Origin: Pseudobdellovibrionaceae bacterium | GTDB lineage: Bacteria > Bdellovibrionota > Bdellovibrionia > Bdellovibrionales > Bdellovibrionaceae | DNA length: 15,270 nucleotides | Assembly (NCBI GenBank): GCA_039810425.1 | Contig: JBDHWW010000063.1 | Location: forward strand, 1-15,270 | Direction of reading: 5' to 3' | Shown here: piece after piece, positions 1 through 15,270 of the stretch | How the letters are laid out: each line of letters starts with the position of its first letter | Position numbering within the stretch: the first letter of the stretch is position 1 | The notes under the pieces: model-generated | The model's database searches: none | What the model was told of the DNA's origin: nothing | What the model saw: only the letters and a program-made list of their open reading frames with translations | Position numbers and translations under genes: made by a program

Positions 1-105
1 TGAGGGGAGAGCCCTCAACAGACAGGATGTCTGTTTGCAGTGACTTTGCGGCAATAAAAAACTCCGCATTCTCCACCGAAACACCCCCTTCTAATAAACG
101 GAGAG

Positions 106-400
106 GCTCTAGAAAGAGCGGCCAAATGCCCTTTGGCCGGCATTCTGGAGACTTTATAGCCTAAAACCCTTCGAGTCCCTGACTCAACCACGGCGGTGAC
201 GGATAAGGGTTTGCATTTTGAGTGTTCAAAGGTCTCTAGGTCATCAAACTCGACTTCTTTTGCTCTACTGTAGACATGGTTTAATTGAGGAAGAAGGTCC
301 TTCGTATGAAGGCCTAAGAAGAGAAACTTTCTCACCACGGTTTTTACGTTAATCCTTAAAATCCGAGCTATTCTTCGTTGAGAGGTGCCACTTACAACCC
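106..400 (-). pseudogene. Transposase remnant (IS1-like/unclassified DDE type): HTH plus first catalytic motif only
   Basis: The frame of ORF 15..338 stays open upstream as SGTSQRRIARILRINVKTVVRK (HTH-like). It continues EFDDLETFEHSKCKPLSVTAVVESGTRRVLGYKVSRMPAKG, a DDE-type start I recall from Bdellovibrionota transposases. Similarity stops after ALSR, and an in-frame stop lies just upstream, so both ends are missing. Confidence 0.6.
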
Positions 401-433
401 CTTTGCCATCAACAGCGTAAGGGGGCAGTTTTT
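396..433. terminator. Imperfect stem-loop just downstream of hutU, possible terminator
   Basis: CCCCTTTGC-CATCAACA-GCGTAAGGGGG is followed by CAGTTTTT on the + strand. The stem is imperfect and the U-tract on the hutU strand is weak. Confidence 0.3.
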
Positions 434-439
434 AAAAAA

Positions 440-2092
440 TTAAACCCAAAGGCTTTTTACACCGCGCTCGCGGGCAACCGCGACGGCTTCTTCGTAGCCA
501 GCATCGACGTGACGGAAGACTCCCATGGCCGGATCGGCCGTCAATACGCGCTCTAAGCGCGCGGCAGCCTCCGCCGTCCCATCAGCGACGATCACTTGTC
601 CCGCATGCTGGCTGTAACCCATCCCCACGCCACCACCGTGATGCAAGCTCACCCAAGTAGCGCCGCAAGCTGTGTTCACCATCGCGTTCAGCAAGGCCCA
701 GTCACTGACCGCATCTGAACCGTCTTTCATCGCTTCGGTTTCGCGGTTTGGACTTGCCACAGATCCGCAATCCAAATGATCACGACCGATGACAATCGGT
801 GCTTTCACTTTGCCTTCAGCCACAAGTCTATTAAACATCAATCCGGCTTTCGCGCGCTCACCATACTCAAGCCAGCAAATACGTGCCGGCAAACCTTGGA
901 AGGCAATGCGTTCTTCGGCCATGTCTAACCAACGGAGAAGGTCTTTTTTGTGCGGAAAGAGTTCGCGCATGGCTTGGTCTGTGACTTTGATATCATTTGG
1001 ATCGCCTGACAAAGCCACCCAACGGAACGGCCCGCTGCCTTTGCAGAAAAGTGGACGGATGTAAGCTGGAACGAAACCAGGATAGTCGAACGCATTTTCA
1101 ACGCCAGCTTCTTGGGCACGCGCCCGCAAATTGTTGCCGTAGTCAAAAGTGACCGCGCCTTTTTCTTTCATCTTGAGCATGCCACGCACGTGCTTTGCCA
1201 TCGAGGCGTAGGCCGCCGCCAAGTACGCTTTTTGATCTTTCTTACGGAACTCCGCGGCTGTCTCGACCGTGTAGCCCTCAGGAATATAACCCACGAGCGG
1301 GTCGTGGGCCGAAGTTTGGTCCGTCAACAAATCCGGAGTGTAGTTTTTCTCGATGAGTTGCCAGATCACGCTCGCCATATTGCCTTCAACCGCGATGGAT
1401 TTTGCTTCGCCCGCTTGGGTGTACTTTTTTATTCTTGCCAAAGCGTCGTCAAGGTCTGTTGCGACTTCGTCGATGTACTTTGTCTCTAGGCGTTTTTGAA
1501 TACGCGTCGGATCGACTTCAACCGCCAACACGCAGGCCCCGGCAAACACACCCGCCAGAGGTTGCGCCCCCCCCATGCCGCCCAAGCCCGCAGTCAGAAT
1601 CGTGCGGCCCTTTAAATTGCCCCCGAAATGCTGACGGCCCGCTTCGACGAAAGTTTCGTAAGTGCCTTGAATGATACCTTGAGTGCCGATGTAGATCCAT
1701 GAGCCCGCCGTCATTTGGCCGTACATCATGAGACCTTTTTTATCGAGCTCATTAAACACTTCCCACGTCGCCCATTTCGGAACGAGGTTGGAGTTCGCCA
1801 GCAAAACGCGTGGCGCATCTTCGTGGGTTTTCAAAATACCGATTGGCTTACCGGATTGAACGAGCAGCGTTTCGTTGTTCTCAAGAGTTTTCAAAGCCGC
1901 CAAAATTTTATCGAAGCTTTCCCAGTTACGCGCTGCTTTGCCAATGCCGCCGTACACCACCAGATCTTCAGGGCGCTCTGCCACCATCGGGTCCAAATTG
2001 TTTTGGATCATCCGATAGGCCGCCTCTTGCAGCCAGCCTTTGCAAACAAGTTTACTACCAGTAGGGGCGCGCACGACGCGGGATTGTGACAT
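440..2092 (-). CDS. hutU: Urocanate hydratase (urocanase)
   Basis: Conserved motifs [71 protein letters not shown] and HHGGGVGMG. Start placed at ATG 2092 (MSQSRVV), downstream of a GGAGG SD. Confidence 0.98.
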
Positions 2093-2117
2093 GGGAATTT
2101 CCTCCAATTAGGAGGTG

Positions 2118-2146
2118 AAAATACGGAGTAAAAACTCACTTTTCAA
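2118..2146 (-). promoter_or_regulatory. Putative sigma70 promoter of hutU
   Basis: The minus strand reads TTGAAA (2146-2141), a 17 nt spacer, then TATTTT (2123-2118), about 25 nt upstream of the ATG. Confidence 0.5.
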
Positions 2147-2199
2147 GAAGTACAGGAGCCCCTCAGTGCGCCGCGACAGGGAGTAGGGCCCGACCTATT

Positions 2200-2601
2200 T
2201 TAGCTGCCGAAAATAAATGGATATGTGACTGGGAAGGTCTTCCCTTCTTCGGCCGGAGGAAATGTCCAATGGATGACTCTCTCAGTAACACAACCTTCGA
2301 GCGCCTGATCTTTGGAGGTATTGTCCTTGATCGTCAGGTTTTGTACGGCCCCTTTGTCGTCGATATCCCATTGAGCCGTGACCTTACCCTTTGTTGCCAT
2401 GCCCTCAATAATTAAATCGGTGTAGCACTGTTGCACGTCATTAAGGCGGCTTTTCACCACCTGTTTCACGGAACTGAGATTTAACTTCTCGGGACCTGCG
2501 GATTCTTTTTTAGCTTTGGCGGAGGCTTCTAGACTTAAGCCGAAAACACAAAGAAGTAGACTCGAGAAGAAAAGGAGCCTCTTTAAAATTCCTTTTTTCA
2601 T
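2200..2601 (-). CDS. Exported AgmX/PglI C-terminal (TonB-C-like) domain protein
   Basis: Signal-peptide-like N-terminus MKKGILKRLLFFSSLLLCVFGLSLEASA. Domain pattern VQQCY...GKVTAQWDIDDKGAV...LEGCV...WTFPP...VTYPFIF. ATG 2601 is preferred over the longer ORF start. Confidence 0.8.
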   Translation of the reverse strand: MKKGILKRLLFFSSLLLCVFGLSLEASAKAKKESAGPEKLNLSSVKQVVKSRLNDVQQCYTDLIIEGMATKGKVTAQWDIDDKGAVQNLTIKDNTSKDQALEGCVTERVIHWTFPPAEEGKTFPVTYPFIFGS

Positions 2602-2620
2602 AAGACACCATCCTGTGGAT

Positions 2621-2626
2621 ATTATA
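2621..2626 (-). promoter_or_regulatory. Putative -10 box for the AgmX/PglI-domain gene
   Basis: Perfect TATAAT on the minus strand about 20 nt upstream of ATG 2601. No convincing -35. Confidence 0.35.
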
Positions 2627-2771
2627 CAACAGCACCACATCCCTCCCTACGAGAAAATGATTTGCCGGTTTTTTGAACAGTATTTCAACGAAAAAACTGG
2701 ACTCTTACTCAATACAAAAGCCCAGTCTCGCGGTAAACAGTCACACCTTGGAAAACAAATCGCAGGTGACT

Positions 2772-3869
2772 CTAAGACTTTTTAAAAATGTGAAATTGAT
2801 AGACACCTGTTCCATCAATTTTCTGGGCCCATAAATCCCTTTCACGGAGATCTTGCCAGCCTTTCAAATCCGGCGCCGTCGGCGCACGCATGAAAGAGCG
2901 GATCACCATTTGCGATCCAGCCTTGGTGTCGCCATGCAGTCGTTGCAAAATCTGGTTCGCGTCCTCTTCAGGAAGGTAGGAAATCGTATCCGAAAGCGAG
3001 ATAAAATCGTAGTTCTTATTCGGCAGATGTTCCAGCATATTTCCGAGCAAGTAATTCACTTTGGTTGGCGCTGTTTTCACGCGTTCAAAAATATGCTGGT
3101 GTGCTTCGAGCGGCAGGCCCTCCTCGTAAACGATCTTTCCGAGGAAAAGAATCTGCATGAAGTAGTTCTTGCGCACAAGCTGCGTGCGGAAAATACGATC
3201 GAACTCCTGAGTGATGAACTCCCACGGGGCCCGGGCTTCAGTTTTTGCTTCGCTGCGGCCGCTGAAATGACCCTTGTAGAGAAACTTGTTAAATACATAT
3301 TCACTGCCCGCAACGCGGATGAAGGTCTTCCACCGGACGCGTGGCCAGTGCTTTTCATAGAGCTCCACTTGTTCGGGGAGCGACTGGGCTTCAAAAACTT
3401 TCGCGAAGTCACACTTCAGGACTTCGCGGAAAAGAAATCCGAGCTTTTGGAAATGCGACTCCCAGCGGCCAAGCAAAATAAATCCGCGGGGGGTCCAGCC
3501 GGCACTGCGTTCACTCCAGTATTTTTTTGCCTCTGGGCTGAGCGGCACTTTTTCAAAAACCGCTCTGCGGTCATCGCCCTCACGCGGACTCGATTGAAGC
3601 GCACCCCGATAGCCCATCAGAAACAGGTACTCTTCATAGGTCAGGGTTTTCATCGCCTCAAAGCGCAACTCACAGAGATAGTTTTGGCTCACCGACATAT
3701 CCACAACGTCGAGTTCCTTCGGATGTTTGGCGATCAGTGGCATGCAACGCGCGCCAGAGCCCGCGATACTGAAAACTCGGGACACTTTTTCCGGCAATAG
3801 GTCAAACTCAACACGGGTGTCTTCATTGGCCAACGTATAGTTTAAATCCGAAAAATACTCTTGCGCCAC
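2772..3869 (-). CDS. DUF3419/BtaA-family protein (SAM-dependent 3-amino-3-carboxypropyl transferase-like)
   Basis: Family pattern LNYTLANED...SIAGSG...VVDMSVSQ..LCELR, ILLGRWE, NYF and ISLSDTISY...IRSF. GTG start downstream of an AAGGA SD. The substrate is not established. Confidence 0.8.
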   Translation of the reverse strand: MAQEYFSDLNYTLANEDTRVEFDLLPEKVSRVFSIAGSGARCMPLIAKHPKELDVVDMSVSQNYLCELRFEAMKTLTYEEYLFLMGYRGALQSSPREGDDRRAVFEKVPLSPEAKKYWSERSAGWTPRGFILLGRWESHFQKLGFLFREVLKCDFAKVFEAQSLPEQVELYEKHWPRVRWKTFIRVAGSEYVFNKFLYKGHFSGRSEAKTEARAPWEFITQEFDRIFRTQLVRKNYFMQILFLGKIVYEEGLPLEAHQHIFERVKTAPTKVNYLLGNMLEHLPNKNYDFISLSDTISYLPEEDANQILQRLHGDTKAGSQMVIRSFMRAPTAPDLKGWQDLRERDLWAQKIDGTGVYQFHIFKKS

Positions 3870-3985
3870 GCGGGATCCTTTCTAAGGTCAGATAAGGCAA
3901 TTTCATAGTGATCTAATCCAAGTTCTTGCCTATAATACTCTAACCAGAGATTTTTGAAAAAGCATCTCGGAGAAAGACCAGATTC
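3870..3985. promoter_or_regulatory. Divergent promoter region between the btaA-like gene and the + strand operon
   Basis: AT-rich 116 bp gap. TATAAT at 3931-3936 on the + strand overlaps TATTAT on the - strand. Confidence 0.45.
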
Positions 3986-4732
3986 ATGAGTTTTCGTGCA
4001 CTTCTTGTCACGTCGCGAGTGACTTTTGTACCGGAGAATTACAATCAACTTGTCTGCGGGCTTGCTGAAGCCCCGCATATTGTCGGTTGCATGATCGTCG
4101 ACAACCGCGATTGGAAAATGGTTCTGCAAGGTTTGGCGTTAGTACTCACCGGCGCCGGCCCCCGCATGGGCACGCAGCTATTGAAAAATTACTTCAACGA
4201 TCTTCTTTCGCGCAAAGAATCGGCGTACCGGAATGCTGAAAAAAAATTCTTTATCGTCGGTGATCTTAATTCCGAGGAAGCCCTCGACATCCTTCGCCGC
4301 GAAAACATCGACTTGATCCTGAATGCGCGCACACGCACGTTCTTTAAGAAAAAACTTTTGGCCACTCCCCGTTTGGGCTGCATCAACATCCACCACGGTC
4401 TCCTGCCGGACCAACGCGGGCTGATGTGTGACTTCTGGGCGCATTTGGAAAAAACCCCTTCCGGCTTTTCAATTCACCAAATGACTTCGAAACTTGACGC
4501 TGGCGCCATTCTGAAAGTCGTCGAAGTAAAAACCGCGAAGACCGACTACCTGGAATCGATCTTTCATGGCTCCAAACAAGAGGTCATCGCCGCGAAAGAG
4601 GCCCTGGCGGAAATCGCTAAGGCCGGAGCGGTCTCTGGAATTGCAAATAGTGAAACCGAAAAAACCATTTACCGTTCAAACCCTACGATCTTGGACTTCT
4701 TTAAGCTTAAATTCAAAGGGACGAAAATATGA
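3986..4732 (+). CDS. Formyltransferase family protein (Formyl_trans_N domain only)
   Basis: CINIHHGLLPDQRG carries the catalytic Asn/His and HQMTSKLDAGAIL the catalytic Asp. At 248 aa it lacks the Fmt C-terminal domain. ATGA overlap with the next gene. Confidence 0.85.
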   Translation: MSFRALLVTSRVTFVPENYNQLVCGLAEAPHIVGCMIVDNRDWKMVLQGLALVLTGAGPRMGTQLLKNYFNDLLSRKESAYRNAEKKFFIVGDLNSEEALDILRRENIDLILNARTRTFFKKKLLATPRLGCINIHHGLLPDQRGLMCDFWAHLEKTPSGFSIHQMTSKLDAGAILKVVEVKTAKTDYLESIFHGSKQEVIAAKEALAEIAKAGAVSGIANSETEKTIYRSNPTILDFFKLKFKGTKI

Positions 4733-7140
4733 AAACCATTATTGCCCTGCATGGGAACCCGGGCTCCCCTGCCGACTGGAATATTTTGCGTGACAAAATA
4801 AGCCCGCAATTCCAACTCAAAGCAGTCGATGCTTATAGCGACGCCTGGAAACAAGAAGTCACCCGCGGAGGCGATAAGAAAATCATCGTGGCGCACTCGT
4901 GGGGTGCATACTTGATTTTGAAAAACCTGAAAGAACTTAAAAACCACATCGAGAAAGTGATCCTGGTCGCTCCATACGTAAAACCAGAGCGCCCACTTTC
5001 GGGCCTGGCGGCAACTTTGCTGAAAGTTCCGGGCCTTGGTGACGCTTTAATCAAGTCCAATCACCAAAAAGCCAAGGACGCTTTCGTGGGCGACCTGATT
5101 CACCCAAACACGGTGAAAGACCTTCCGTACTTCCAGACTTTGCACAATCACTTCCAAGACTGGACGGTTTGGCAAAAGACGGTGGTGAATAAAATCAAGA
5201 TGCAAGACAATCCTTGGAGCGAGGCAGAAATCACCGACGTGCCGCTCGCTGTTTTGTACGGCGAACTTGATAAGATCTCCAGTAACGAAATTCAATCGGC
5301 GGTGCTGGGTAAATACCCCCACGCGCAGATGAAAACCATTCCCGCGACGGGTCACGGGCTCCTTTGGAGCCACCCCGAGAAGATCATTTCTGAAATTTCC
5401 ACTGAAGGAGCGACTGTGAGCACGAACAATCAAAAAATCGGTTACTACGCTGGAAGCGATGAGCGTAACAATGTTATCAACTACATGGAAAAGCATTTGC
5501 GGGAGTTTCCGGACCGTGTGGCCCTGCGCTGGGCAAAGCGCGAATCCATGGCGCAATGGGATGGCTCTCCGAAAACACCCATTCAACATGATGAAATCAC
5601 TTACAAAAACTTTGCCGCGCGCATCAACTCTTTCGCACAAGGGCTGCTGGATATCGGTATTCAAAAAGGTGATCGCGTGATCATCTTCTTGCCTATGAGC
5701 CTCGATATGTACACGGCGATGTTCGCGGTTCAGCGTATCGGCGCCATTGCCGTATTTTTGGATTCTTGGGCGCGTAGCCATCACTTGGGGGCCTCCGCCG
5801 AGTGTGTGGGCCCGAAAGCCATGATCAGCTTTCAGCAGGCGTTTGCGCTCGTCGATCAGGTTCCAGAATTTAAATCCATGCCGATACGTGTCCTTTACGG
5901 CCCCGGTGACAAGTGCACCCACCGTTTTCCTGAATTATTGAAACCCACGGCTTCACCGATTGCGGCGGTTGAGAGTGAGTTCACCGCCTTGATCACTTTC
6001 ACAACCGGTTCTACGGGTAAACCAAAAGGCGCAAACCGCACGCACCGCTTCTTGTCCGCCCAGCATCATGCGCTTTCCCATGTGATTCCTTACACGGAAA
6101 AAGACAAAGACATGCCGGCATTCCCGATCTTCAGTTTGAACAACTTGGCCAGCGGAGTGACGACGATTTTACCAGCGGTGGACCTGGCGGCGCCTTCGGA
6201 ACGTGACTCAGCGATCTTAGCTTGTCAGATCTTGAACGAAGGTATCAACTGCACGACGCTTTCTCCGAGCATGCTGGTGGGCTTAGCCCGCTATTGCAAA
6301 GAACACGGCATTAAACTCGACAAACTCCGCCGCGTCGTCACCGGCGGCGCGCCGATTTCCAAAGACGACGTTAAGAACTTCTATGCGATCGCCCCGCAAA
6401 CAGATCTTTGGATCTTGTATGGCTCTACTGAAGCAGAACCAATGGCCCATATCGAAGGCCGGGATATGCTTAAAGAAAATCCTTCAGCGGATCCGGAGAT
6501 CATTGAAGAAGGCGTGAACGTGGGTCATATCAGCGAAGATATCGACTACAAATTCATCCGCATTAAAGACGGTCCGGTGGAATTGCAAGGTTCCTCTTGG
6601 TCACAAGTCGAGGTGGCAAACGGCGAAGTGGGCGAGTTTATCTGTACGGGTGATCACGTTTGCCGGGACTACTACAACAATAAAGAGGCCTTTAAAACCA
6701 CCAAAATTATGGATGGCCAAAACCAGGTTTGGCACAGAACCGGTGACTTGGCTTATATCGACTCTAAAAAGGACCTTTGGATCGTGGGCCGCACCAACAA
6801 CGCGATTGAGCGCGGCGGTAAGTACTACTTCCCGGTGCGAGCCGAAGTGCTGTTGAAGCGCATGCCCTTTGCTTATCGTTGCGCCTTCCTCGGCATGGAC
6901 GACAAAACCCTCGGTCAAGCCACTTTTGCATGTGTGGAGCTTAAAGCGGACATCGATAAAGCCACTTTTGACTTTGAGGCCGCGAAAAAAGAAATCAACC
7001 GCGTCTTTGCCAAGAACAGAATTCCCATCGATCAAATCAAGTTCGTCAAGGCGGTTCCGATGGATCCCCGGCATCACTCGAAAGTGGAATATAAAGTCTT
7101 GCGTGACCAACTGAAAGACCCGGGAGCTATCATTGCGTAA
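4729..7140 (+). CDS. Alpha/beta hydrolase fused to an AMP-binding (OleC-like adenylate-forming) enzyme
   Basis: N-terminal domain: LHGNPG, AHSWG (Ser57), YGELD, TGHG. C-terminal domain: ITFTTGSTGKPKG, TGGAP, YGSTEAEP, WHRTGD, IVGR, and MDPRHHSKV, which resembles the OleC PVDxRHNAKI motif. Confidence 0.88.
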   Translation: MKTIIALHGNPGSPADWNILRDKISPQFQLKAVDAYSDAWKQEVTRGGDKKIIVAHSWGAYLILKNLKELKNHIEKVILVAPYVKPERPLSGLAATLLKVPGLGDALIKSNHQKAKDAFVGDLIHPNTVKDLPYFQTLHNHFQDWTVWQKTVVNKIKMQDNPWSEAEITDVPLAVLYGELDKISSNEIQSAVLGKYPHAQMKTIPATGHGLLWSHPEKIISEISTEGATVSTNNQKIGYYAGSDERNNVINYMEKHLREFPDRVALRWAKRESMAQWDGSPKTPIQHDEITYKNFAARINSFAQGLLDIGIQKGDRVIIFLPMSLDMYTAMFAVQRIGAIAVFLDSWARSHHLGASAECVGPKAMISFQQAFALVDQVPEFKSMPIRVLYGPGDKCTHRFPELLKPTASPIAAVESEFTALITFTTGSTGKPKGANRTHRFLSAQHHALSHVIPYTEKDKDMPAFPIFSLNNLASGVTTILPAVDLAAPSERDSAILACQILNEGINCTTLSPSMLVGLARYCKEHGIKLDKLRRVVTGGAPISKDDVKNFYAIAPQTDLWILYGSTEAEPMAHIEGRDMLKENPSADPEIIEEGVNVGHISEDIDYKFIRIKDGPVELQGSSWSQVEVANGEVGEFICTGDHVCRDYYNNKEAFKTTKIMDGQNQVWHRTGDLAYIDSKKDLWIVGRTNNAIERGGKYYFPVRAEVLLKRMPFAYRCAFLGMDDKTLGQATFACVELKADIDKATFDFEAAKKEINRVFAKNRIPIDQIKFVKAVPMDPRHHSKVEYKVLRDQLKDPGAIIA

Positions 7141-8008
7141 CTGGCTGATTCTCATCAAAGAGCGTTTTAGTCCCGGAAGTTACCTTCCGATGATTTTCAT
7201 CTTCACTCTGGCTAACGGCCTGTACTTGTCGAAGGCCGCAAGTTACACCTTCGATACCGGCCGCTTTCTCTGCGTGCTGGCGCTGATGCTGAGTTTTTTC
7301 TTCCGCATGCGTTGCTTTGATGAAATCAAAGACTACGAAGTGGACCTAAAAGTGAATCCGACCCGCCCGCTGGCGCGCGGGGTGCTGACCGTTCCACAAG
7401 TTAAAAAGGGCCTCTTCTGGATGGTTCTTTTTGAAGTGGTTGTCGCGGCTTTTTTGGGTTTCTGGCCTTTCCTGATCCATGTGATGGCGATTGGTTACAG
7501 TCTGCTCATGTACGAAGAATTCTTTGTCGGCGATTTCCTGAGGCCTCACTTAACCACCTATGCCGTGACCCACACCTTCGTCAGCGTTCTTTTGGGTGTT
7601 TCGGCCGCGACCGCGATTGTGAATTTCAACCCCCAGAAAATTCAATTCGTGGATATTTGTTTCTTTCTGATGAACTGGTGTTTTTTCAATTTATTTGAAT
7701 TTGCCCGCAAGACCTTCGCGCCGAACGAGGAACGCCCGCATGTTCCCAGCTACAGCAATATCTTTAGGCCCAAAGGCGCTTGGTTGCTTTCGTGGTCACA
7801 GGTGCTCACCGGCACTCTCCTTTCTTGGGTGGCGCTCAGCAATCACCCGCGTTTTTATTGGCTGATTGTGGGGGCGGTTCTATATACGCTTTTAAGCGTT
7901 GGCTATGCGCTCAATCCCCAGTTGAAGATGGCTAAGATCTTCCGCAACGGCACCGGGGTGTATTTGCTTTTACATTACGTTCTAATCTGCTTTGTGATGG
8001 GAGCTTAA
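7133..8008 (+). CDS. UbiA prenyltransferase-superfamily membrane protein
   Basis: Multiple hydrophobic segments and the first Asp-rich motif FDEIKDYEVDLKVNPTRPLARG. TTG start overlaps the upstream stop by 8 bp. Confidence 0.8.
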   Translation: MRNWLILIKERFSPGSYLPMIFIFTLANGLYLSKAASYTFDTGRFLCVLALMLSFFFRMRCFDEIKDYEVDLKVNPTRPLARGVLTVPQVKKGLFWMVLFEVVVAAFLGFWPFLIHVMAIGYSLLMYEEFFVGDFLRPHLTTYAVTHTFVSVLLGVSAATAIVNFNPQKIQFVDICFFLMNWCFFNLFEFARKTFAPNEERPHVPSYSNIFRPKGAWLLSWSQVLTGTLLSWVALSNHPRFYWLIVGAVLYTLLSVGYALNPQLKMAKIFRNGTGVYLLLHYVLICFVMGA

Positions 8009-8009
8009 G

Positions 8010-10691
8010 ATGCTTGTAACGAAAAACTCCACGCACTTCTTTGCGAAAAACGAGGCTGGCGGCAAGGGTTTTAACCTGTACTTGATGACCAAAGCCGGTA
8101 TTCCCGTTCCCGAGTGGGTGGTTTTCGGCCGTCGCTACTTCCAAGACTTTGTTAAGAGTGCCGGCATCCACCAAGAGCTCTACCAACTGGTGGAAAAAGT
8201 CATTCACGGTCATATCACCGCCAAGGACGCCGAAGCCGCGATCGAGAAACTCTTTGCCGCTGGCAACACGACCGCTTTGCTGTCTTCGAGCATTGATCAA
8301 GCCTTGCAAATGCTGGGCGCCGATAAGGTTTTTTCCGTGCGCTCCTCGGCGGCGGACGAGGACGGCCTTTCACACTCCTTTGCCGGCCAGCTTTCTAGTT
8401 TCTTGTATGTAAACGGCAAGGAAGATATTTTAACGTACATTAAAAAATGCTGGGCTTCGGCGTTCTCTGAGCGCGGCCTGATTTACCGTAAGGAAAACCA
8501 AATCGATCCGCACAAAATCTCGGTTTCCGTGGTTCTTCAGCGCATGATCGATCCGGAAAAGTCCGGCGTGATGTTTACCTGCGACCCGGTAACCGGCAAA
8601 CTGGACAATTACGTCGTGTCGTCCGTTTATGGCGTTGGCGAAGGCCTTGTATCAGGCGCCTTGGATGCGGACTCCTACTGGTTGCACCAGCACACCGGTG
8701 ATCTGGTGAAATCTGAAATCATCGAAAAGAAAGAGATGATGAAGAAATCAAGCTCCGGCCACTGTCGCCTGCATCCAGTCGCTGCCGAGCTGGTCCTACA
8801 GCCGTCTTTAAATGGAAAAGAATTGCTGGGCTTGTATAAGCTGGGTCGCTTGATCCACGACCAGTATCACCGTCCGCAAGATATCGAGTGGGCGATTGAA
8901 AATGGAACCTTTTATATTCTGCAAACCCGTCCTGTGACGAATTTGCAATCAGATCTCGTTGGTTATCCGAATCTTTGGGATAATTCGAATATTATCGAAT
9001 CTTACGGCGGTTTGACCTCACCGCTGAGCTTTAGCTTTGCGCTTAGAAACTACAAGGCCGTCTACATCCAGTTCTGCGAAGTCTTAGGTGTACCGAATGA
9101 AATTATCAAGGACATGGATTCTTACTTAAGCTACATGCTGGGAAGCATTGATGGCCGCGTCTATTACAATCTCTTTAACTGGTACAAACTCGTCGGCGTT
9201 CTTCCGGGCTTTAAACAAAACCGCGAGTTCATGGAAACCATGATGGGCGTGTCTGAGGGCCTGACGGATGAAATCGCCAACCGGATTAAGCCCCACCCGT
9301 CTTGGGATACGTTCACCGGCAAGCTTCGCAAAATGGTGACCGGTTTTAACTTTATAAAGTACCACTTCACGATTCAAACAGTGGTGGATGACTTTTTAAA
9401 GACCTTCCATCGCGATTACGACAAGTATCGCGCGATGCCGCTCGCAAGCATGCGTGGCGATCAGCTCTTACGCGTGTACTTGGATGTGGAGCGCAACATG
9501 CTCGGCCGCTGGAAGGCACCGATCATCAATGACTTCCTTTGCATGGTGCACTTTGGCCTCTTACGCAAACTCACGACAACATGGTTGTCGAGCCTTGATT
9601 CAACTATTCAGAATGATCTTCTGGCCGGTGAAGGCGGACTTGAAAGCGCGGAGCCGACGAAGGCCTTACTGCGCCTCGCTGCGGAAGCGATCAAAGATGC
9701 CGATCTCAAGCGAATCATCGAAACGACGGATCCGAAAGACGGCCTCGAGGCTTTAAATCAGTCAAAGCACCGCAATTTCTACAATATGGTCCTCGATTAT
9801 CTCGATCGCTTTGGTTTCCGTTGCATGAGCGAGATGAAGCTTGAAGAAATTGATTTGCTGACGGACCCGTCTTATTTGTTTGTCTGTCTTAAGAACTACT
9901 TAAAGGCCGGCAAAGTGGAAGTCCACGATGACTCCCGCGAGAGGTCTCTGCGTGCGGCCTCTGAAAAGAAGGTCGAGGAGCATCTCTCGGGAATGCGCAA
10001 AAAGATTTACTTCTGGGTTCTCAAGCATGCCCGCAAGGCGGTGAAGAACCGCGAAAACACCCGTTTTGCACGGACACGTATTTATGGAATTGCCCGCACG
10101 ATCTTCCAGAACATCGGTGAAGATCTGGCCAACATAGGCGCGCTTCATAATGGCCGCGACGTTTTTTGGCTGACCATTGAAGAGGTCTTCGGGATTTACA
10201 ATGGAACACTGCCCTCTTACAATCTTCAGGCCTTCGTCAACTTGCGCAAGTCCGATTACGCGAAGTTCACTGAAGACACGGATCCACGCATCCTGACCCG
10301 GGGAGCGGTCTACTGGAACAATCCTTTCGTTAAAGAAGAAGAGGTTTCCATGAATATCGCGGAAGGCGAAGACTGTGATCTCAAGGGTCTGCCCTGCTGC
10401 CCGGGCGTTCTCGAGGGAACGGTGAAAGTAATTTTAAATCCGACCGACAACTTGGATTTGAATGGCGAGATTCTCGTGACGGCGAGAACCGACCCGGGAT
10501 GGGTTCCACTCTATCCGGCGATCTCGGGCTTGCTGGTGGAACGCGGAAGTTTGCTTTCCCACTCCGCGATCGTGGCGCGTGAAATGGCCATTCCCGCCAT
10601 TGTCAGCATTCCCGGCCTGACAAAGACTTTGAAGACCGGCATGCGAATTCGTATGGACGGCAAAGCCGGCACGATTAAAATTTTGGAATGA
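8010..10691 (+). CDS. PEP-utilising dikinase-type phosphotransferase (ATP-grasp, central substrate domain, C-terminal phospho-His swivel; RPH/PigC-like order)
   Basis: ATP-grasp motifs GGKG, VRSSAADED...SFAGQ, GVGEGLVSG, PQDIEWA and LQTRPVT. Swivel motifs GEILVTARTDPGW and GSLLSHSAIVARE (His851). No C-terminal PEP-binding TIM barrel, so it is not PpsA or PPDK. Confidence 0.88.
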   Translation: MLVTKNSTHFFAKNEAGGKGFNLYLMTKAGIPVPEWVVFGRRYFQDFVKSAGIHQELYQLVEKVIHGHITAKDAEAAIEKLFAAGNTTALLSSSIDQALQMLGADKVFSVRSSAADEDGLSHSFAGQLSSFLYVNGKEDILTYIKKCWASAFSERGLIYRKENQIDPHKISVSVVLQRMIDPEKSGVMFTCDPVTGKLDNYVVSSVYGVGEGLVSGALDADSYWLHQHTGDLVKSEIIEKKEMMKKSSSGHCRLHPVAAELVLQPSLNGKELLGLYKLGRLIHDQYHRPQDIEWAIENGTFYILQTRPVTNLQSDLVGYPNLWDNSNIIESYGGLTSPLSFSFALRNYKAVYIQFCEVLGVPNEIIKDMDSYLSYMLGSIDGRVYYNLFNWYKLVGVLPGFKQNREFMETMMGVSEGLTDEIANRIKPHPSWDTFTGKLRKMVTGFNFIKYHFTIQTVVDDFLKTFHRDYDKYRAMPLASMRGDQLLRVYLDVERNMLGRWKAPIINDFLCMVHFGLLRKLTTTWLSSLDSTIQNDLLAGEGGLESAEPTKALLRLAAEAIKDADLKRIIETTDPKDGLEALNQSKHRNFYNMVLDYLDRFGFRCMSEMKLEEIDLLTDPSYLFVCLKNYLKAGKVEVHDDSRERSLRAASEKKVEEHLSGMRKKIYFWVLKHARKAVKNRENTRFARTRIYGIARTIFQNIGEDLANIGALHNGRDVFWLTIEEVFGIYNGTLPSYNLQAFVNLRKSDYAKFTEDTDPRILTRGAVYWNNPFVKEEEVSMNIAEGEDCDLKGLPCCPGVLEGTVKVILNPTDNLDLNGEILVTARTDPGWVPLYPAISGLLVERGSLLSHSAIVAREMAIPAIVSIPGLTKTLKTGMRIRMDGKAGTIKILE

Positions 10692-10712
10692 TCGAAGGTG
10701 GCTTCAGGCAAT

Positions 10713-12857
10713 CTACCGAGAACCACTCTTGGCGCGTAAACGCGACAGCGCGAGGGAGCGGGTCAGTTCGATCTCTTTGTCGGAGACGATACCCATATGG
10801 CCCTGGATGGCGGCAAGTTCGACTCCGTGCTTGCGAGCCATCTTGTAGATGCCCTTGACTTTGTTCCACTCGATATCCCGGCCCATGGTGAAAGATTCAA
10901 ACTGTCCTTCCAACGCCAGCAAAGCGGTTTCAGCCAAGCAGGCATAAACCGCTTTGCCCGGAAGCCCCAAGTCACAGGTGATTTGCGCTGGACCCGGCAA
11001 AAGCACTTCGCCTGATTCGATGATCAAAACATCCGGGCGTTTCTTCGCATCTTCTTTGTCAAAATCGAGTGGTCGCGAACAATCACAGACGACACAACCC
11101 GGTTTTAATCTCATCACATCAATGATCTTCTGATCAAAGGCCGACGTGGCGGTCACTAGCGCGTCCGCCTGACCGGCGATTTCATTGGCATCCGTGGCGG
11201 TCAGGATTTCGCTGCGTGGAGCCAACTGACGGATCTCCGCCGCCAACTCATCCAAACGGTTTTGGCGAGGGGCCACTAAGCAAACTTTTTTAAAGGTCAA
11301 GGCCAAGAGCTTCGCGGACACTTTGCCGATGGAGCCCGTCGCACCGATGACCATGGCCATCCCATCCACTAATCCCGTATTCGGATCATTCTTAACCAGA
11401 TTCATTTTTTTAACGACTTCAGCTAAAGCCCAAAGCGTCGCGCTCGCGCTGAGACTATTGCCGGTTGTCACAGGAATCGGCGAATTGCGATTGATCGTCA
11501 CACCCGCATCGCCAACAACTTTCGTGTAAGCGCCTAGTCCAACGATCTTTGCTCCACGATTTGCGGCATCATAGCAGATCTTTTCGATTTTCGCGTAAGT
11601 AACCTCTGGATCTTCTTCTTTTAAAACCTTCGGCGTCGACAACAGGCCATAAATCAAACCATTCACTTCGCGGCCGCTTTCTTTACTGATCACGTGCTGG
11701 ACACTTCCGTAAATGATCGCCGGGGTCTTTGAAACAAGGCGATCAAAAGGATCGTTAAATTTCTGCGGCATCTTGCGCAACAAGCCCAGTCCTGGAATAC
11801 GCAATAAATCGCGATGAGAAAGTGCATGAACGACGAACGCAAAATCCGGTTCCTTTTCCCGCAGCAAAATATTTTTTACGCGGTTAATTCCATGCGAGAT
11901 CTTCGCCTGAGTCGATGTACGGTGGCTCACCGTGTACTGGCGGGTCATCTGTCGGACTTCCGGGCGCGGATTAATCAGTTCTTCCCATTCCGACACGGAT
12001 AGCGGAGCCGTTTTCCCATGCACCAGGCGCAGAGTCGCGTCCAAGATAGAGTAATTCATATACGGACTCATTTTGTACTCTTCCGGGAAAAGATTCACCA
12101 CAGAGCGCGGAGCGTATTTTTGCGCTTCTTTTTCCGCAGCCGGGTGATGAGACCAAACAATCAAATCTTTTCCGCGAACAAACTCCACGGCGGAATCAAA
12201 GAGCAATAGGAAAGGATAATCACTCGCCACGTACTGAACTCTTTCCACCTGTGACGCAAGAACGGAGCGGCCCATTTTCTGAATCTGCGTTTCCGCAAGC
12301 GGCGTATTGTTACGCATATCCTTTAAGTTCGCCACGTTCAGCGCAAGCTTCGAGAACGCCATCAAACCGGGCACCGGCGCTTGAATCATCAAAGGCAAAC
12401 CCAGCATCGAGTAAGCGTCACCAATGAAGACTTTTCCCGGATAGGATCTGCGTAAAAACTCTTCGAGCTCCGCGCTGAGCATCGCCGCCGGAAAAAAGAC
12501 GCCTGCTTCCGGGCTGACTTTTCCCGATTCAATGAGCTTAATCATGGAATTCAAATTTGAAATCTCACGAAGACCCGTGCCATCGCATAGAGGCACGGAA
12601 CAAGGCATTCCCATGATCTCAAGGTACTGGCGGTGAACATAGGTTTTCTCATCAAGCTTAATCACCGGAGGCAGGCTGCTCAGCGCGAAGGCATCGACAT
12701 CCATGCGCAAGTTTTGTATGAGTTTTTTAACCAGGTCGACTGAGAAGTTCACACCAAAGCGCTGAACTTCAAAACGGTGTCCCACATATTCATAACTGAA
12801 GGAATCATCCCAATGAGAGCGTCCGAAACTAATCTCAGCGATTCGAAATGTACTCAT
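10713..12857 (-). CDS. Two-domain oxidoreductase: uncharacterised N-terminal domain plus C-terminal acyl-ACP-reductase (AAR)-like domain
   Basis: C-terminal half: FAFVVHAL, GLGAYTKVVGD, TTGNSLSA, Rossmann VIGATGSIG, and YACLAETALLALEGQFESFTMGR, close to cyanobacterial AAR FACFAEAMLLEFEG...FSWGR with the catalytic Cys. ATG 12857 follows a GAGG SD and overlaps the upstream gene by 23 bp. Confidence 0.75.
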   Translation of the reverse strand: MSTFRIAEISFGRSHWDDSFSYEYVGHRFEVQRFGVNFSVDLVKKLIQNLRMDVDAFALSSLPPVIKLDEKTYVHRQYLEIMGMPCSVPLCDGTGLREISNLNSMIKLIESGKVSPEAGVFFPAAMLSAELEEFLRRSYPGKVFIGDAYSMLGLPLMIQAPVPGLMAFSKLALNVANLKDMRNNTPLAETQIQKMGRSVLASQVERVQYVASDYPFLLLFDSAVEFVRGKDLIVWSHHPAAEKEAQKYAPRSVVNLFPEEYKMSPYMNYSILDATLRLVHGKTAPLSVSEWEELINPRPEVRQMTRQYTVSHRTSTQAKISHGINRVKNILLREKEPDFAFVVHALSHRDLLRIPGLGLLRKMPQKFNDPFDRLVSKTPAIIYGSVQHVISKESGREVNGLIYGLLSTPKVLKEEDPEVTYAKIEKICYDAANRGAKIVGLGAYTKVVGDAGVTINRNSPIPVTTGNSLSASATLWALAEVVKKMNLVKNDPNTGLVDGMAMVIGATGSIGKVSAKLLALTFKKVCLVAPRQNRLDELAAEIRQLAPRSEILTATDANEIAGQADALVTATSAFDQKIIDVMRLKPGCVVCDCSRPLDFDKEDAKKRPDVLIIESGEVLLPGPAQITCDLGLPGKAVYACLAETALLALEGQFESFTMGRDIEWNKVKGIYKMARKHGVELAAIQGHMGIVSDKEIELTRSLALSRLRAKSGSR

Positions 12858-13851
12858 TGTAACCTCGCCAGAAAGATTTTTCGTAACTGTCAAACTCAGG
12901 ACACCAGCCTTCGCCAAGAATGTCGCACGTCGAAACCGAGTCGTACTTCGGGAACATCAAAAGATAATTGAGCTGCTCTTCAGGGAACTTCACCGTCCAC
13001 TTCGAGACCTTCGTGAGCAAGGTCTTCGGCGCGCGGCTTACAAAGGTGATTCCGCGATGGGGAATAAAAAGCTGCTTCAATGTTTTGAGATATAAATCGC
13101 GAGTGATCAAGCCCTCTTTCGGTGTGATATGAAAACTCTGGTAACCGGTGGCTTCAGTTGCTTGTGACCATTTGGCAAAACCCGCGACCGCCTCCGCCGC
13201 TTTATCCACCGGCACCAAGGGAAGACGGTTCATTTTTTTGCCTGGCAAGGGAAATGAGGACGGAAAGCTTTCAATAAATTTACGAATTCGCTCGAATGCC
13301 TGTGGCGCATGGTAGGGGCCATCAATGCGCTCGATCTTTCCATTCACGGTGTCGCCGACAAGGACACCCAAACGCATATTAATGCACAGTTTGAAATGCA
13401 TGGACTGATTCACAATCATCTGCTCAGCCAAGGCCTTGCTTTCAGAGTACGGGTCCGGAAACGGGCGGCTAAAATTCAAATCAAACGGCCGCACCATTTT
13501 GAGCGGCGAGTTCACCGCAGCCGCCACGGAGCTTGCGTTCATAAAAACGGGGATTTGCAATTCACGGGCGATTTTCAAAGCGGTTCCTGTCGCTATCACA
13601 TTCTGCTGAAAAGCATCCCTGTGACTGGCCGCGAGGTCGTACAAGCCGGCCAAGTGAATAAAAACATCGTATTTTTTCTTTTTTAGAGCCTCAAGATTCA
13701 AGCCCGCATTCCAGCGGGTCAGATCGCCGCGAACTTCCGCTGTTTCCGAGCGCGAAATCACCTCGACGTCGGCAAATTCACGCAGCATCGGCAAAACCTG
13801 TTTGCCCAGAAACCCCGTCCCGCCTGTCAAAAGAATTTTTATTTTTCCCAT
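12835..13851 (-). CDS. Extended SDR oxidoreductase resembling the N-terminal domain of two-domain fatty acyl-CoA reductases (Maqu_2507/AcrA1-like)
   Basis: LTGGTGFLG, HLAGLYDL, SSVAAA, catalytic YSESK, GVLVGD..NGKIERIDGPY and LPLVPVD. ATG 13851 overlaps the kinase gene end by 13 bp. Confidence 0.82.
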   Translation of the reverse strand: MGKIKILLTGGTGFLGKQVLPMLREFADVEVISRSETAEVRGDLTRWNAGLNLEALKKKKYDVFIHLAGLYDLAASHRDAFQQNVIATGTALKIARELQIPVFMNASSVAAAVNSPLKMVRPFDLNFSRPFPDPYSESKALAEQMIVNQSMHFKLCINMRLGVLVGDTVNGKIERIDGPYHAPQAFERIRKFIESFPSSFPLPGKKMNRLPLVPVDKAAEAVAGFAKWSQATEATGYQSFHITPKEGLITRDLYLKTLKQLFIPHRGITFVSRAPKTLLTKVSKWTVKFPEEQLNYLLMFPKYDSVSTCDILGEGWCPEFDSYEKSFWRGYNEYISNR

Positions 13852-14855
13852 CGGACTGAGCCCACGACGACAGGAAGGCCTTTGTGCAGGCATTTCACAG
13901 ACAACTCCGCCACGTCTTTGAAAAGAATCTCGCCGTCGCCGAAGAAAGTAATCGGGCGGTTGGGATTCTTCGCGCGGACCTTGAACTCGGTGATCTCATA
14001 AGATGTAAAGCGCTTCGATTGGCTGACGGTCCCTTTTCTCAAATGCCAGAACGAGGATAGGTGTTCACGAACGCGGCGGCCTTCGGCGAGCAGTAAGTTC
14101 ACAGTGCCATCGGTATTGGAAGTAAATGGCGCCGGCAAGAACTTGTTGCCGATGCTCGGTTGATTGTTGACCAGGACAATGGGCGCATCGCTGGCGAATT
14201 TTTTATCTCCTGGAAGTTCAAATTCAAGCTCCCAGCCGTTCGGATCCCAGGTGCGCAAGGCTTCGGCCACCATCAGCGAATAAACGCCTGGGCCGATTTT
14301 TTTAATAAGCCGGTAGCTGTTTTTGGCAATCGACTTAAAGACCGTCGCGGTTTGCGGGCAGTTCGCCACTTTTTGCAAACTCGAACGCACCTTGTTCGCG
14401 AGATCCGCAGTCATCGCGGGGATGCCGAACCCGCCGTTGGTTAACATGAAGGCTTTTTTGTCTCCGGAAGAAATTTGAATGATGTCGATGTTGCGGACGG
14501 AGCCCTCGAGGATGTTGCGAACTGCTTGATCAATCCGGTGGCTGATGCCGATTTCATGAGCCAAGTCATTCGCCGTCCCCGAACGCACGATCGCGATCGG
14601 CGGAATTTTTGTCAGGTCTTCTCCGGCGTGGACAAGGTATTGCAAGCACGTGTTAACGGTGCCGTCGCCACCGCAAATAAGGAAGTAGTCGGTTTTCTGC
14701 GCAAGTTCCTCGCACAAAAATTGGCCCATCTCTTCGAGAGTCTTGGCCTTCGAGAAAACCAATTCACAGCGAAACAGAGCGGTACGGATTTTTTCTTCGA
14801 TCAACGCGGGGTTCACGGAGCCCGCCTTTGGGTTGATGACAACAGAGACTCTCAC
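13839..14855 (-). CDS. Diacylglycerol/sphingosine-kinase-family lipid kinase (DAGK_cat, YegS/DgkB-like)
   Basis: INPKAG, CGGDGT, SGTANDLA and GDGE motifs. Start taken as GTG 14855 (AGGA 8 nt upstream). ATG 14864 is the alternative. Confidence 0.9.
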   Translation of the reverse strand: MRVSVVINPKAGSVNPALIEEKIRTALFRCELVFSKAKTLEEMGQFLCEELAQKTDYFLICGGDGTVNTCLQYLVHAGEDLTKIPPIAIVRSGTANDLAHEIGISHRIDQAVRNILEGSVRNIDIIQISSGDKKAFMLTNGGFGIPAMTADLANKVRSSLQKVANCPQTATVFKSIAKNSYRLIKKIGPGVYSLMVAEALRTWDPNGWELEFELPGDKKFASDAPIVLVNNQPSIGNKFLPAPFTSNTDGTVNLLLAEGRRVREHLSSFWHLRKGTVSQSKRFTSYEITEFKVRAKNPNRPITFFGDGEILFKDVAELSVKCLHKGLPVVVGSVRWEK

Positions 14856-14878
14856 TGGACACATCCTTCCATATGACT

Positions 14879-14907
14879 TTAATAGCAATCAATATTCCAG
14901 TACTCAA
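14879..14907 (-). promoter_or_regulatory. Putative sigma70 promoter of the kinase-SDR-AAR operon
   Basis: The minus strand reads TTGAGT, a 17 nt spacer, then TATTAA, with TG at the extended -10 position. Confidence 0.4.
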
Positions 14908-14994
14908 GCCCGTCTCCGGCACTCTGGCCCTGTCCTAAGGACCCAGGACCGTCTATCCTTTAGACAAAAGCCCTAGAGCGGCCCTCGTTGCTGT

Positions 14995-15270
14995 GGCCTC
15001 TCGGGTTTTAGCTGTGGGTAGGTTTCATGCCAGGCTGCTATATTTGAATAGACGGCGGGTATCCATGTGTCTCGAATTGAGAAATCCACATCGTTGAAGG
15101 ATCTTTAGCATAAAGGATTCCTCGTTCTGATAACTGTAAGCCATCGCCTTTAAAACTCGGATCTTGTTGTTGAGTCCTTCACTGATAGCCGTAGTTATTA
15201 ACCAGAGCAATACATAGTTTGCATTTTTCCCAGAAAAATTGTAGTCTGAGGAGATGGGCAAAGACGGACG
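14995..15270 (-). mobile_element. ISL3-family insertion sequence remnant (3' end with probable degenerate terminal inverted repeat)
   Basis: Transposase C-terminal motif followed shortly after the stop by ACCCACAGCTAAAACCCGAGAGGCC, which resembles ISL3 ends (...GAAGAGCC). The other end is not visible. Confidence 0.55.
15025..15261 (-). pseudogene. ISL3-family transposase C-terminal fragment
   Basis: TTAISEGLNNKIRVLKAMAYSYQNEESFMLKILQRCGFLN matches the ISL3 consensus TNxxxEGxNNKIKxxKRxAYGYRN. The usual R and G are substituted and the upstream sequence is poorly similar. Cut by the window edge. Confidence 0.75.

Follow-up and report, generated by a model that had tools for sequence, protein, structure and literature searches.

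The window analyzed here is a 15,270-nucleotide stretch (contig JBDHWW010000063.1, positions 1 to 15,270, assembly GCA_039810425.1) of a Pseudobdellovibrionaceae bacterium; it is the whole contig of a genome that is 99.9% complete. Positions 2772-14855 are filled by eight open reading frames, g1 to g8, whose linkage is above chance and which form one conserved cassette, carried by roughly one in three of the phylum genomes sampled. The cassette encodes a real and widespread pathway of lipid type, apparently undescribed, for which a tractable model host is available. We consider it probable that the eight genes serve a single pathway leading to a fatty-chain compound with an N-blocked homoserine unit. 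More tentatively, we propose that this compound is an accessory envelope lipid, in which a fatty alcohol would be activated by phosphate, O-linked to a glycerol-type backbone and fitted with an N-formylated homoserine head. The genes are as follows.

2772-3869, minus strand: g1, BtaA-like (DUF3419) S-adenosylmethionine (SAM)-dependent 3-amino-3-carboxypropyl transferase of a divergent subfamily (PF11899)
3986-4732, plus strand: g2, N-formyltransferase (PF00551)
4729-7140, plus strand: g3, Ser-type alpha/beta-hydrolase fused to an OleC-clade AMP ligase (Pfam, NCBIfam)
7133-8008, plus strand: g4, UbiA-fold membrane transferase with the first Asp motif intact and the second motif basic (PF01040)
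8010-10691, plus strand: g5, RPH/PigC-type phospho-His dikinase (PPDK_N and PEP-utilizer domains; NF004881)
10713-12857, minus strand: g6, acyl-thioester reductase with a C-terminal AAR/PigE-like domain bearing Cys640 (PigE 4ppm, AAR 6jzq)
12835-13851, minus strand: g7, extended short-chain dehydrogenase/reductase (SDR) like the N-terminal half of PRK07201-type fatty acyl reductases (PF07993)
13839-14855, minus strand: g8, YegS/DAGK-family lipid kinase (PF00781, PF19279)

Same-strand junctions measure -4 (g2/g3), -8 (g3/g4), +1 (g4/g5), -23 (g7/g6) and about -13 bp (g8/g7); g1 and g2 are divergent and 116 bp apart, and g5 and g6 are convergent and 21 bp apart. This layout, with no unrelated gene in between, bears out a preliminary description of the DNA that had listed eight contiguous enzyme genes with overlapping or 1-bp junctions within operons, and the Pfam and NCBIfam families are in keeping with the chemistry it had named (acyl adenylation, hydrolysis, reduction, UbiA-type transfer, formylation, SAM-derived aminocarboxypropylation and two phosphotransferases). 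Catalytic motifs are retained in all eight genes, the roles of the motif residues being those that we presume. A promoter and terminator scan of the window was at chance level (9 versus 10.4 and 28 versus 21.2), so we propose no regulatory sites.

Of 41 relatives compared, 12 have g5 at ≥43% identity, and these same 12 have g6 at ≥50%; 11 of them have g1, and the one missing it is 72% complete. A survey of 251 genomes of the phylum (completeness filter 90%; kin are non-independent, and counts are reported with no p-values) found a g5-type dikinase in 80, g6 in 69 and both in 65, that is, a dikinase in 65/69 genomes with g6 and g6 in 65/80 dikinase genomes. DUF3419 genes occur in 74 of the 80 dikinase genomes, and dikinase, g6 and DUF3419 together in 64; neither the dikinase family nor DUF3419 was found in any of 14 control genomes (0/14). 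The co-occurrence of the two convergent operons elsewhere, on which the preliminary description depended, is thus seen in 65 of 69 genomes. Its view of one conserved, uncharacterized system that makes a fatty alcohol, employs two phosphotransferases and a UbiA transfer, and takes a homoserine unit from SAM is supported, whereas the product, ether link and order of steps are predictions.

Within the 65 genomes with both genes, g5 and g6 lie within 20 kb in 49, more than 1 Mb apart on one contig in 2 and on different contigs in 14. Of the 16 genomes in which the two are apart, 11 have DUF3419 close to g6 and 5 have it close to g5; g1, the lone gene among the three units of the preliminary description, therefore belongs with g8-g7-g6. 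All eight genes are co-directional in loci L021, L022, L121 and L124, and other arrangements include divergons (L115, L116), convergent operons (L032, L033) and split halves (L117/L118, L020/L122). Relatives carry extra ABC/LolA-like/outer-membrane exporter genes. Judging by sequence comparison, this dedicated exporter is missing from the present genome: no homolog of its outer-membrane gene was found there, and the best matches to its LolA-like, permease and ATPase genes are 24-46% identical and located elsewhere. Among the 15 dikinase genomes without g6, 5 have an HMGR-like gene within 7 kb, and two examined genomes with neither g6 nor a nearby HMGR-like gene have a P450 inside the cassette. 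In three further genomes of this group (L111, L112 and L113) a more distant dikinase-UbiA pair, with no DUF3419, stands next to P450, PlsC acyltransferase or polyketide synthase genes. These settings suggest that the dikinase-UbiA pair is a portable module.

The cassette is not confined to this phylum. The best 80 of at least 681 stretches from a GTDB scan gave 72 loci from many phyla, and the cassette was found in Planctomycetota, Verrucomicrobiota, Acidobacteriota, Cyanobacteria, Bacteroidota and others. These loci, the window, 8 of 14 loci from relatives (4 duplicates and 2 of other dikinase subfamilies being left out) and 2 plasmid loci make up a set of 83 annotated loci. The dikinase is present in all 83, UbiA in 70, the ligase in 62, DUF3419 in 61, a ceramide-synthase-like GNAT in 42 and the formyltransferase in 21; reductases are HMGR-like in 30 (1 partial), AAR-like in 17 (2 weak and PigE-type) and SDR in 12, and the remaining families are phytol-kinase-like (31), YegS kinase (15), hydrolase (17) and the export genes LolA-like (11), FtsX (7) and MMPL (5). 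Outside the phylum, the commonest order is HMGR-like, UbiA, dikinase, DUF3419, kinase, GNAT, ligase. Adjacency (UbiA-dikinase 64/70, DUF3419-phytol-type kinase 29/30, GNAT-ligase 31/38, formyltransferase-ligase 16/21) suggests three working pairs, namely UbiA with dikinase, DUF3419 with kinase, and N-transferase with ligase.

Three slots of the cassette hold alternatives that exclude one another. AAR-type and HMGR-like reductases (17 and 30 loci) never occur together (0/83), nor do the YegS kinase (15) and a membrane protein (31) that we take from its motifs to be phytol/dolichol-kinase-like and that has no Pfam match (0/83), nor the formyltransferase (21) and the GNAT (42; 0/83). The formyltransferase/GNAT swap is separate from the reductase swap, with formyltransferase accompanying HMGR-like genes in 4 loci and GNAT accompanying AAR in 5. 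Because each of the three slots holds mutually exclusive alternatives, the swaps point in turn to a fatty alcohol, to a lipid phosphate and to an amine that is N-blocked.

In the HMGR-like gene, the position of human S684 is acidic in 26/30 sequences and that of L862 is Phe in 24/30, the misses in both cases being mostly regular-expression failures, and K735 is replaced by Met in the single sequence aligned. By these residues the gene carries the marks of FcrA; a mevalonate-making role for this HMGR-like partner was considered and dropped given the same residues. The activity of FcrA is established on plain fatty acyl-CoA only, and some FcrA enzymes have been suggested to supply ether lipids (PMC11948995). 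Since the g6 slot swaps with an FcrA-like gene, which also lies nearby in 5 of the 15 genomes without g6, g6 and g7 most likely make a fatty alcohol. In L095 the ligase is fused to the reductase. As for the amine, distant homologs of the GNAT (25-28% identity) are flanked by an SPT-like aminotransferase on one side and an epimerase on the other in Rubrobacter and Streptomyces records, and adjoin lptFG in Roseomonas and Sphingomonas. Passages of PMC11334938 describe Spt-bCerS-CerR as the known bacterial sphingolipid gene trio, and because the setting of the GNAT homologs matches that trio, the g2 slot likely blocks a lipid amine, by analogy. The SAM-derived unit of g1 is the sole amine source within the cassette. 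The annotation 'dATP pyrophosphohydrolase' presumably denotes bCerS.

The individual proteins were compared with family models and solved structures. DUF3419 is the family matched by BtaA, according to parts of PMC6642084. Against PF11899, g1 scores 196 bits (Pfam cut-off 28), whereas DUF3419 genes in five dikinase-less genomes of the phylum, read as canonical BtaA, score 374-402; no solved structure was found among the sequence relatives of g1. The motif N134-x-H136...D171 of g2 is kept in 21/21 homologs, and the solved proteins nearest to g2 are Fmt and amino-sugar N-formyltransferases. The two domains of g3 are encoded as separate genes in some relatives; its hydrolase has S57/D181/H209, the Ser motif being present in 15/17 homologs, and its ligase scores 368 bits against PRK09274 (cut-off 478), 220 against OleC (900) and 203 against a FadD-type model (476). 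The g5 protein scores 1274 bits against NF004881 (cut-off 883) and below cut-off against the RedH, PigC and Rph models; it has the ATP-grasp, central substrate domain and C-terminal swivel His of its superfamily, aligns with the solved enzyme 5fbs across the ATP-grasp and swivel domains, and keeps H851, R681 and E682 invariant in 10 sequences. Named homologs of g5 come from Bdellovibrio.

The membrane protein g4 has a first Asp-rich motif DExxDxxxD followed by PxRP, and 13 residues are invariant in 45 sequences (R60, D63, K66, D67, D71, M126, E129, Y143, H147, E189, R192, K193 and Y207). The top fold match of its structure model (predicted local distance difference test score, pLDDT, 95.5) is DGGGP synthase 7bpu (template-modeling score, TM, 0.67; 15% identity), in agreement with a profile search, and for a g4 homolog the DGGGPS models score below cut-off. 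Assignment of g4 as a DPPR-synthase-like phosphoribosyltransferase is disfavored, 8j8j ranking only 12th with TM 0.53.

The C-terminal domain of g6 matches PigE 4ppm (E 7e-24) and AAR 6jzq (E 3e-11), with the Rossmann motif GATGSIG at 505 and catalytic Cys640; the AAR equivalog score is under cut-off, and the Cys motif is present in 12/15 homologs, the other 3 being fragments. The N-terminal 325 residues (window 11883-12857, minus strand) have no Pfam or NCBIfam match, lack a Rossmann Gly motif and show no sequence similarity to the C-terminal domain. For a model of this domain (pLDDT 78.8, 12 sequences) Foldseek alone gave no clear fold; the top structural match is AAR 6jzq (Z 10.0, root-mean-square deviation 4.9, 233 aligned; next Z 8.7). 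With this modest margin, g6 is apparently, on the strength of the model, an active AAR with a degenerate tandem AAR copy. A search for the N-terminal domain standing alone returned 2 fragments only. Its look-alikes bear the Atlas label 'quinate 5-dehydrogenase family' (0.92) and belong to no Pfam family, and their clusters are commonest in Deinococcota, Chloroflexota and Armatimonadota; more broadly, this domain family may serve acyl reductases as a degenerate partner subunit. The g7 protein scores 117 bits against NF005539 and has TGGTGFLG and Y135xxxK139. In g8, whose solved relatives are YegS and BmrU, a GGDGT motif is present, and the gene starts with GTG at 14855, with GGAAGG shortly upstream.

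From the genes, motifs, linkage and slot swaps, all of which are observed, we infer the substrates, the product and the order of steps as follows. The g3 ligase would make an acyl thioester, which g6 would reduce to the aldehyde and g7 to the alcohol. The g5 dikinase would then phosphorylate the alcohol or its phosphate, and g4 would use the product as donor in an O-alkylation, as DGGGP synthase does with a prenyl diphosphate, the acceptor being a glycerol-type backbone. The g8 kinase and g1 would act in sequence to give a phospho- or ether-linked homoserine head, whose amine would be formylated by g2 or, in relatives, acylated by the ceramide-synthase-like GNAT. The g3 hydrolase would trim or transfer an acyl or formyl group, and in most relatives the ABC/LolA-like system would carry the product to the outer membrane.

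Bdellovibrio bacteriovorus HD100 has a g5 counterpart, CAE80911, that is 78% identical. By annotation, size and order, cross-checked with the named locus L034, g2-g5 correspond to Bd3150, Bd3151, Bd3152 and Bd3153, g1 to Bd3156 and g6-g8 to Bd3160, Bd3161 and Bd3162, the outer-membrane and LolA-like genes being Bd3157 and Bd3159. In excerpts of a transposon-insertion sequencing study of strain 109J (PMC6561027), the ten matching genes have fitness values of 1.28-2.72 across four prey conditions (defect cut-off 0.1), similar to neighboring genes, and insertion mutants have no predation defect. Because these mutants show no fitness defect, the cassette product is accessory. For host-independent growth, the values looked up for six genes in a microarray study (PMC2797640) are increases of 1.7- to 2.3-fold for Bd3151 and Bd3153 and of 3.5- to 6.4-fold for Bd3156, Bd3160 and Bd3161, with Bd3162 down to 0.7-0.8. 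Passages of an RNA-seq study of HD100 (PMC3627812) give Bd3150-53 as attack-phase specific, at 40- to 294-fold, and the upstream Bd3148-49 likewise. Both published tables list the UbiA-fold gene (HD100 Bd3152, 109J EP01_RS01045) under the name manganese transporter permease, and this annotation may have hidden the cassette from notice.

Several observations weigh against the proposed glycerol-linked envelope lipid. UbiA enzymes require allylic diphosphate donors, and we know of no precedent for a plain alkyl donor; the weak point of the scheme is that an alkyl phosphate, if saturated, would donate poorly to a UbiA enzyme, although the problem would be resolved if the alcohol were allylic and 2-enoyl-derived or if the donor were the enol phosphate of an aldehyde. 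The second Asp-rich motif of g4 is replaced by an invariant E189-x-x-R192-K193 (ExxRK), and because of this change and the extra invariant residues M126, E129, Y143 and H147 the donor or acceptor of g4 is probably unusual. Ordinary UbiA nearly ties with DGGGP synthase as a match to g4, the latter itself being at 15% identity. In the phylum, the reductase is linked to the kinase and g1 rather than to g4-g5, which is a poor fit to reduction followed directly by g5 phosphorylation; the g3 ligase, by NCBIfam score, is nearer the OleC clade than FadD; and the cassette includes no acyltransferase or glycerol-handling gene. The hidden Markov models were built from the same 83 loci that they scored, which makes those scores circular, and many loci end at contig edges. 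The product lipid is predicted from the genes, and no lipid has been seen. In the passages of the RNA-seq study, Bd3156-62 are scored silent in both sampled phases (PMC3627812); the cassette halves in HD100 are therefore not co-expressed in the two phases sampled, which argues against tight co-regulation.

A glycerol-free amino-lipid, which we regard as rather unlikely, would have g1 place homoserine directly on the fatty alcohol or an alkyl phosphate, with the amine blocked; the OleC-like ligase would activate the amino-acid carboxyl for reduction or ester formation, and homoserine would form the backbone of a ceramide mimic for which serine palmitoyltransferase is not needed. The split cassettes, which keep g1 with the reductase and kinase (11/16; L118, L122), are consistent with such a product, as are the homology of the GNAT to sphingolipid-operon GNATs and the adjacency of the N-blocking enzyme to the ligase even where it is a formyltransferase, which needs no acyl-CoA. 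Its SAM chemistry would also require no unusual alkyl donor, but the UbiA-dikinase pair, the most constant of all, would be left without a clear job, and the demonstrated substrate of FcrA is a plain fatty acyl-CoA. Alternatively, the cassette might make a small lipophilic secondary metabolite or signal, with the dikinase, like PigC and TamQ, activating the oxygen of an aldehyde or (form)amide so that it can condense. This is unlikely: the window is without aminotransferase or pyrrole genes, and a membrane lipid is what the lipid kinases, the membrane UbiA and the transporters of Lol or MMPL type suggest. Speaking for it are the resemblance of g5 and g6 to PigC/RedH and PigE, the P450, major facilitator superfamily (MFS) and sulfotransferase genes at some loci, the non-essentiality of the genes and the attack-phase specificity of one half. 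In excerpts of two papers (PMC7923214, PMC9486936), moreover, the cly/noc cluster has a DUF3419 gene at its border, and nocuolin A incorporates carbon and nitrogen from methionine. Two further notions, an OleC-like NocH and a DUF3419 enzyme assigned in the nocuolin paper, found no support in the passages of that paper: NocH is a fatty acyl-AMP ligase fused to an acyl carrier protein (ACP), and 'DUF' and 'NocK' appear 0 times.

It is very unlikely that g2-g5 and g8-g7-g6-g1 are two separate pathways that are merely neighbors. The distant or separate-contig placement of the halves in 2 and 14 genomes and their differing expression in the HD100 RNA-seq passages would fit this view, but the halves co-occur in 65/69 genomes, are interleaved within single operons (L121, L124 and the canonical order), and 5 of the 6 genes looked up in the microarray passages rise together in host-independent cells. 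Most improbable of all is an already characterized pathway, whether for betaine lipid, olefin/beta-lactone, prodiginine, myxobacterial ether lipid or mevalonate-linked prenylation: every gene has a relative in one such pathway, yet the defining partners are missing. In the open-access literature, to which our coverage was largely confined, subscription journals lying outside it, no account of the gene set or of the Bd3150-62 genes was found, and the claim of the preliminary description that no characterized pathway has this combination holds to that extent.

The comparison with each known system makes the differences specific. Although g1 shares the DUF3419 family with betaine lipid synthesis (BtaAB), it is divergent, and in place of BtaB, no methyltransferase of that kind being found in a search confined to the window, the cassette has an N-formyl or N-acyl transferase and a kinase. 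In plant phytol salvage, phytol kinase and phytyl-phosphate kinase act with UbiA-family transferases. The cassette would share with this route and with archaeal DGGGP synthase the logic of alcohol, phosphate, activated donor and O-alkylation by a UbiA enzyme, but its alcohol would derive from a fatty acid, a phospho-His dikinase takes the activation slot and the second Asp motif of g4 is altered. The g5 protein shares the PigC architecture of prodiginine and tambjamine synthesis but scores 357 and 381 bits against PigC/RedH (cut-offs 1300 and 1350), and g6, whose C-terminal domain corresponds to the PigE reductase domain, matches PigE positions 2-348 only and has no class III aminotransferase domain. 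The GNAT variant is distantly homologous to the sphingolipid-operon enzyme, but the window has a formyltransferase in that slot and no Spt, and no SPT family recurs among the clustered loci. OleB hydrolases have an Asp nucleophile, whereas that of the g3 hydrolase-ligase fusion is Ser; its OleC-clade ligase scores 220 and 208 bits against OleC models (cut-offs 900 and 850), and there is no OleA in the window, with 2 of 3 genomic ACP_syn_III genes scanned and the best reaching 106 versus 285 for NF006720. We found no characterized pathway in which a phospho-His dikinase is partnered by a UbiA-fold enzyme, nor one in which a BtaA-like transferase is combined with both a kinase and a transferase of N-formyl or N-acyl groups. 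The myxobacterial ether-lipid protein ElbD is a reductase-ligase-ACP-acyltransferase multidomain protein (PMC11948995), and the window has no ACP or PlsC domain. It also has no FcrA, although the HMGR-like gene that replaces g6-g7 in other phyla shares the diagnostic residues; the main text of the FcrA paper (PMC11948995) contains 'UbiA' 0 times and apparently gives no account of this cassette.

The novelty of the cassette would thus lie in a combination of enzymes that fits none of these systems, its product being a prediction. If the proposed accessory envelope lipid is correct, bacterial ether or amino lipids would have an additional biosynthetic route, and three well-known enzyme families would be credited with new chemistry. 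Because the cassette is found in 80 of the 251 phylum genomes, as counted by the dikinase, and well beyond this phylum, it is relevant to lipid biomarkers. Because B. bacteriovorus HD100 has the same genes, the hypothesis can be tested now in a model predator, with named HD100 genes and 109J insertion mutants that grow. A bolder version, quite unlikely as a whole, would make the dikinase-UbiA pair a new ether-lipid route from fatty alcohol via an archaeal-type enzyme and the kinase-BtaA pair a one-step, SAM-dependent source of a phospho-homoserine head that is then N-formylated, with the attack-phase half tailoring the surface of the hunter. A rare 'phosphatidylthreonine' is reportedly present in B. 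bacteriovorus HD100; having the same mass as phosphatidylhomoserine, it could in this version be a cassette intermediate.

Other loci show further variation. A dikinase of another subfamily (TTADFRDGG motif) lies beside a PigE/TamH-type aminotransferase-AAR fusion in L028:6063-11139, L058:12573-17199 and L073, and in L058 and L073 this pair interrupts the cassette, accompanied by genes for a P450, a sulfotransferase and an MFS transporter. L029:4884-17938, with a dikinase, an SPT-like aminotransferase, a YegS kinase, a nucleotidyltransferase, two acyl-CoA dehydrogenases and a sulfotransferase, is possibly a modified-sphingolipid cluster. In L027:6033-14121 and L114:5012-7354, an HMGR-like reductase carries a fused APH/choline-kinase-like domain and thereby brings a third type of kinase into that slot; L027 additionally has a ligase-ACP fusion and an AurF-like di-iron protein. 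The cyanobacterial loci L057, L062 and L089 have no reductase or kinase in the locus and carry, upstream, a radical SAM gene and two uncharacterized genes.

The left flank of the cassette holds two ordinary neighbors, a urocanate hydratase (urocanase) at 440-2092 (minus strand; Pfam/NCBIfam) and a small protein with an AgmX/PglI C-terminal (AgmX/TonB-C) domain at 2200-2640 (minus strand), both retained in close relatives. Transposase-like fragments lie at the right contig end (15025-15270, minus strand, ISL3 by Pfam) and, by a resemblance that we presume, at the left end (15-380, minus strand); they probably mark assembly breaks. Elsewhere in the same genome, a second lipid-type operon (L126:1211-13552; G000:C13, about 53-65.5 kb) contains an AMP ligase, an ACP, an ABC/FtsX/LolA-like exporter and proteins like isoprenylcysteine methyltransferase, KAS III, amino acid-ACP ligase and thioester reductase.

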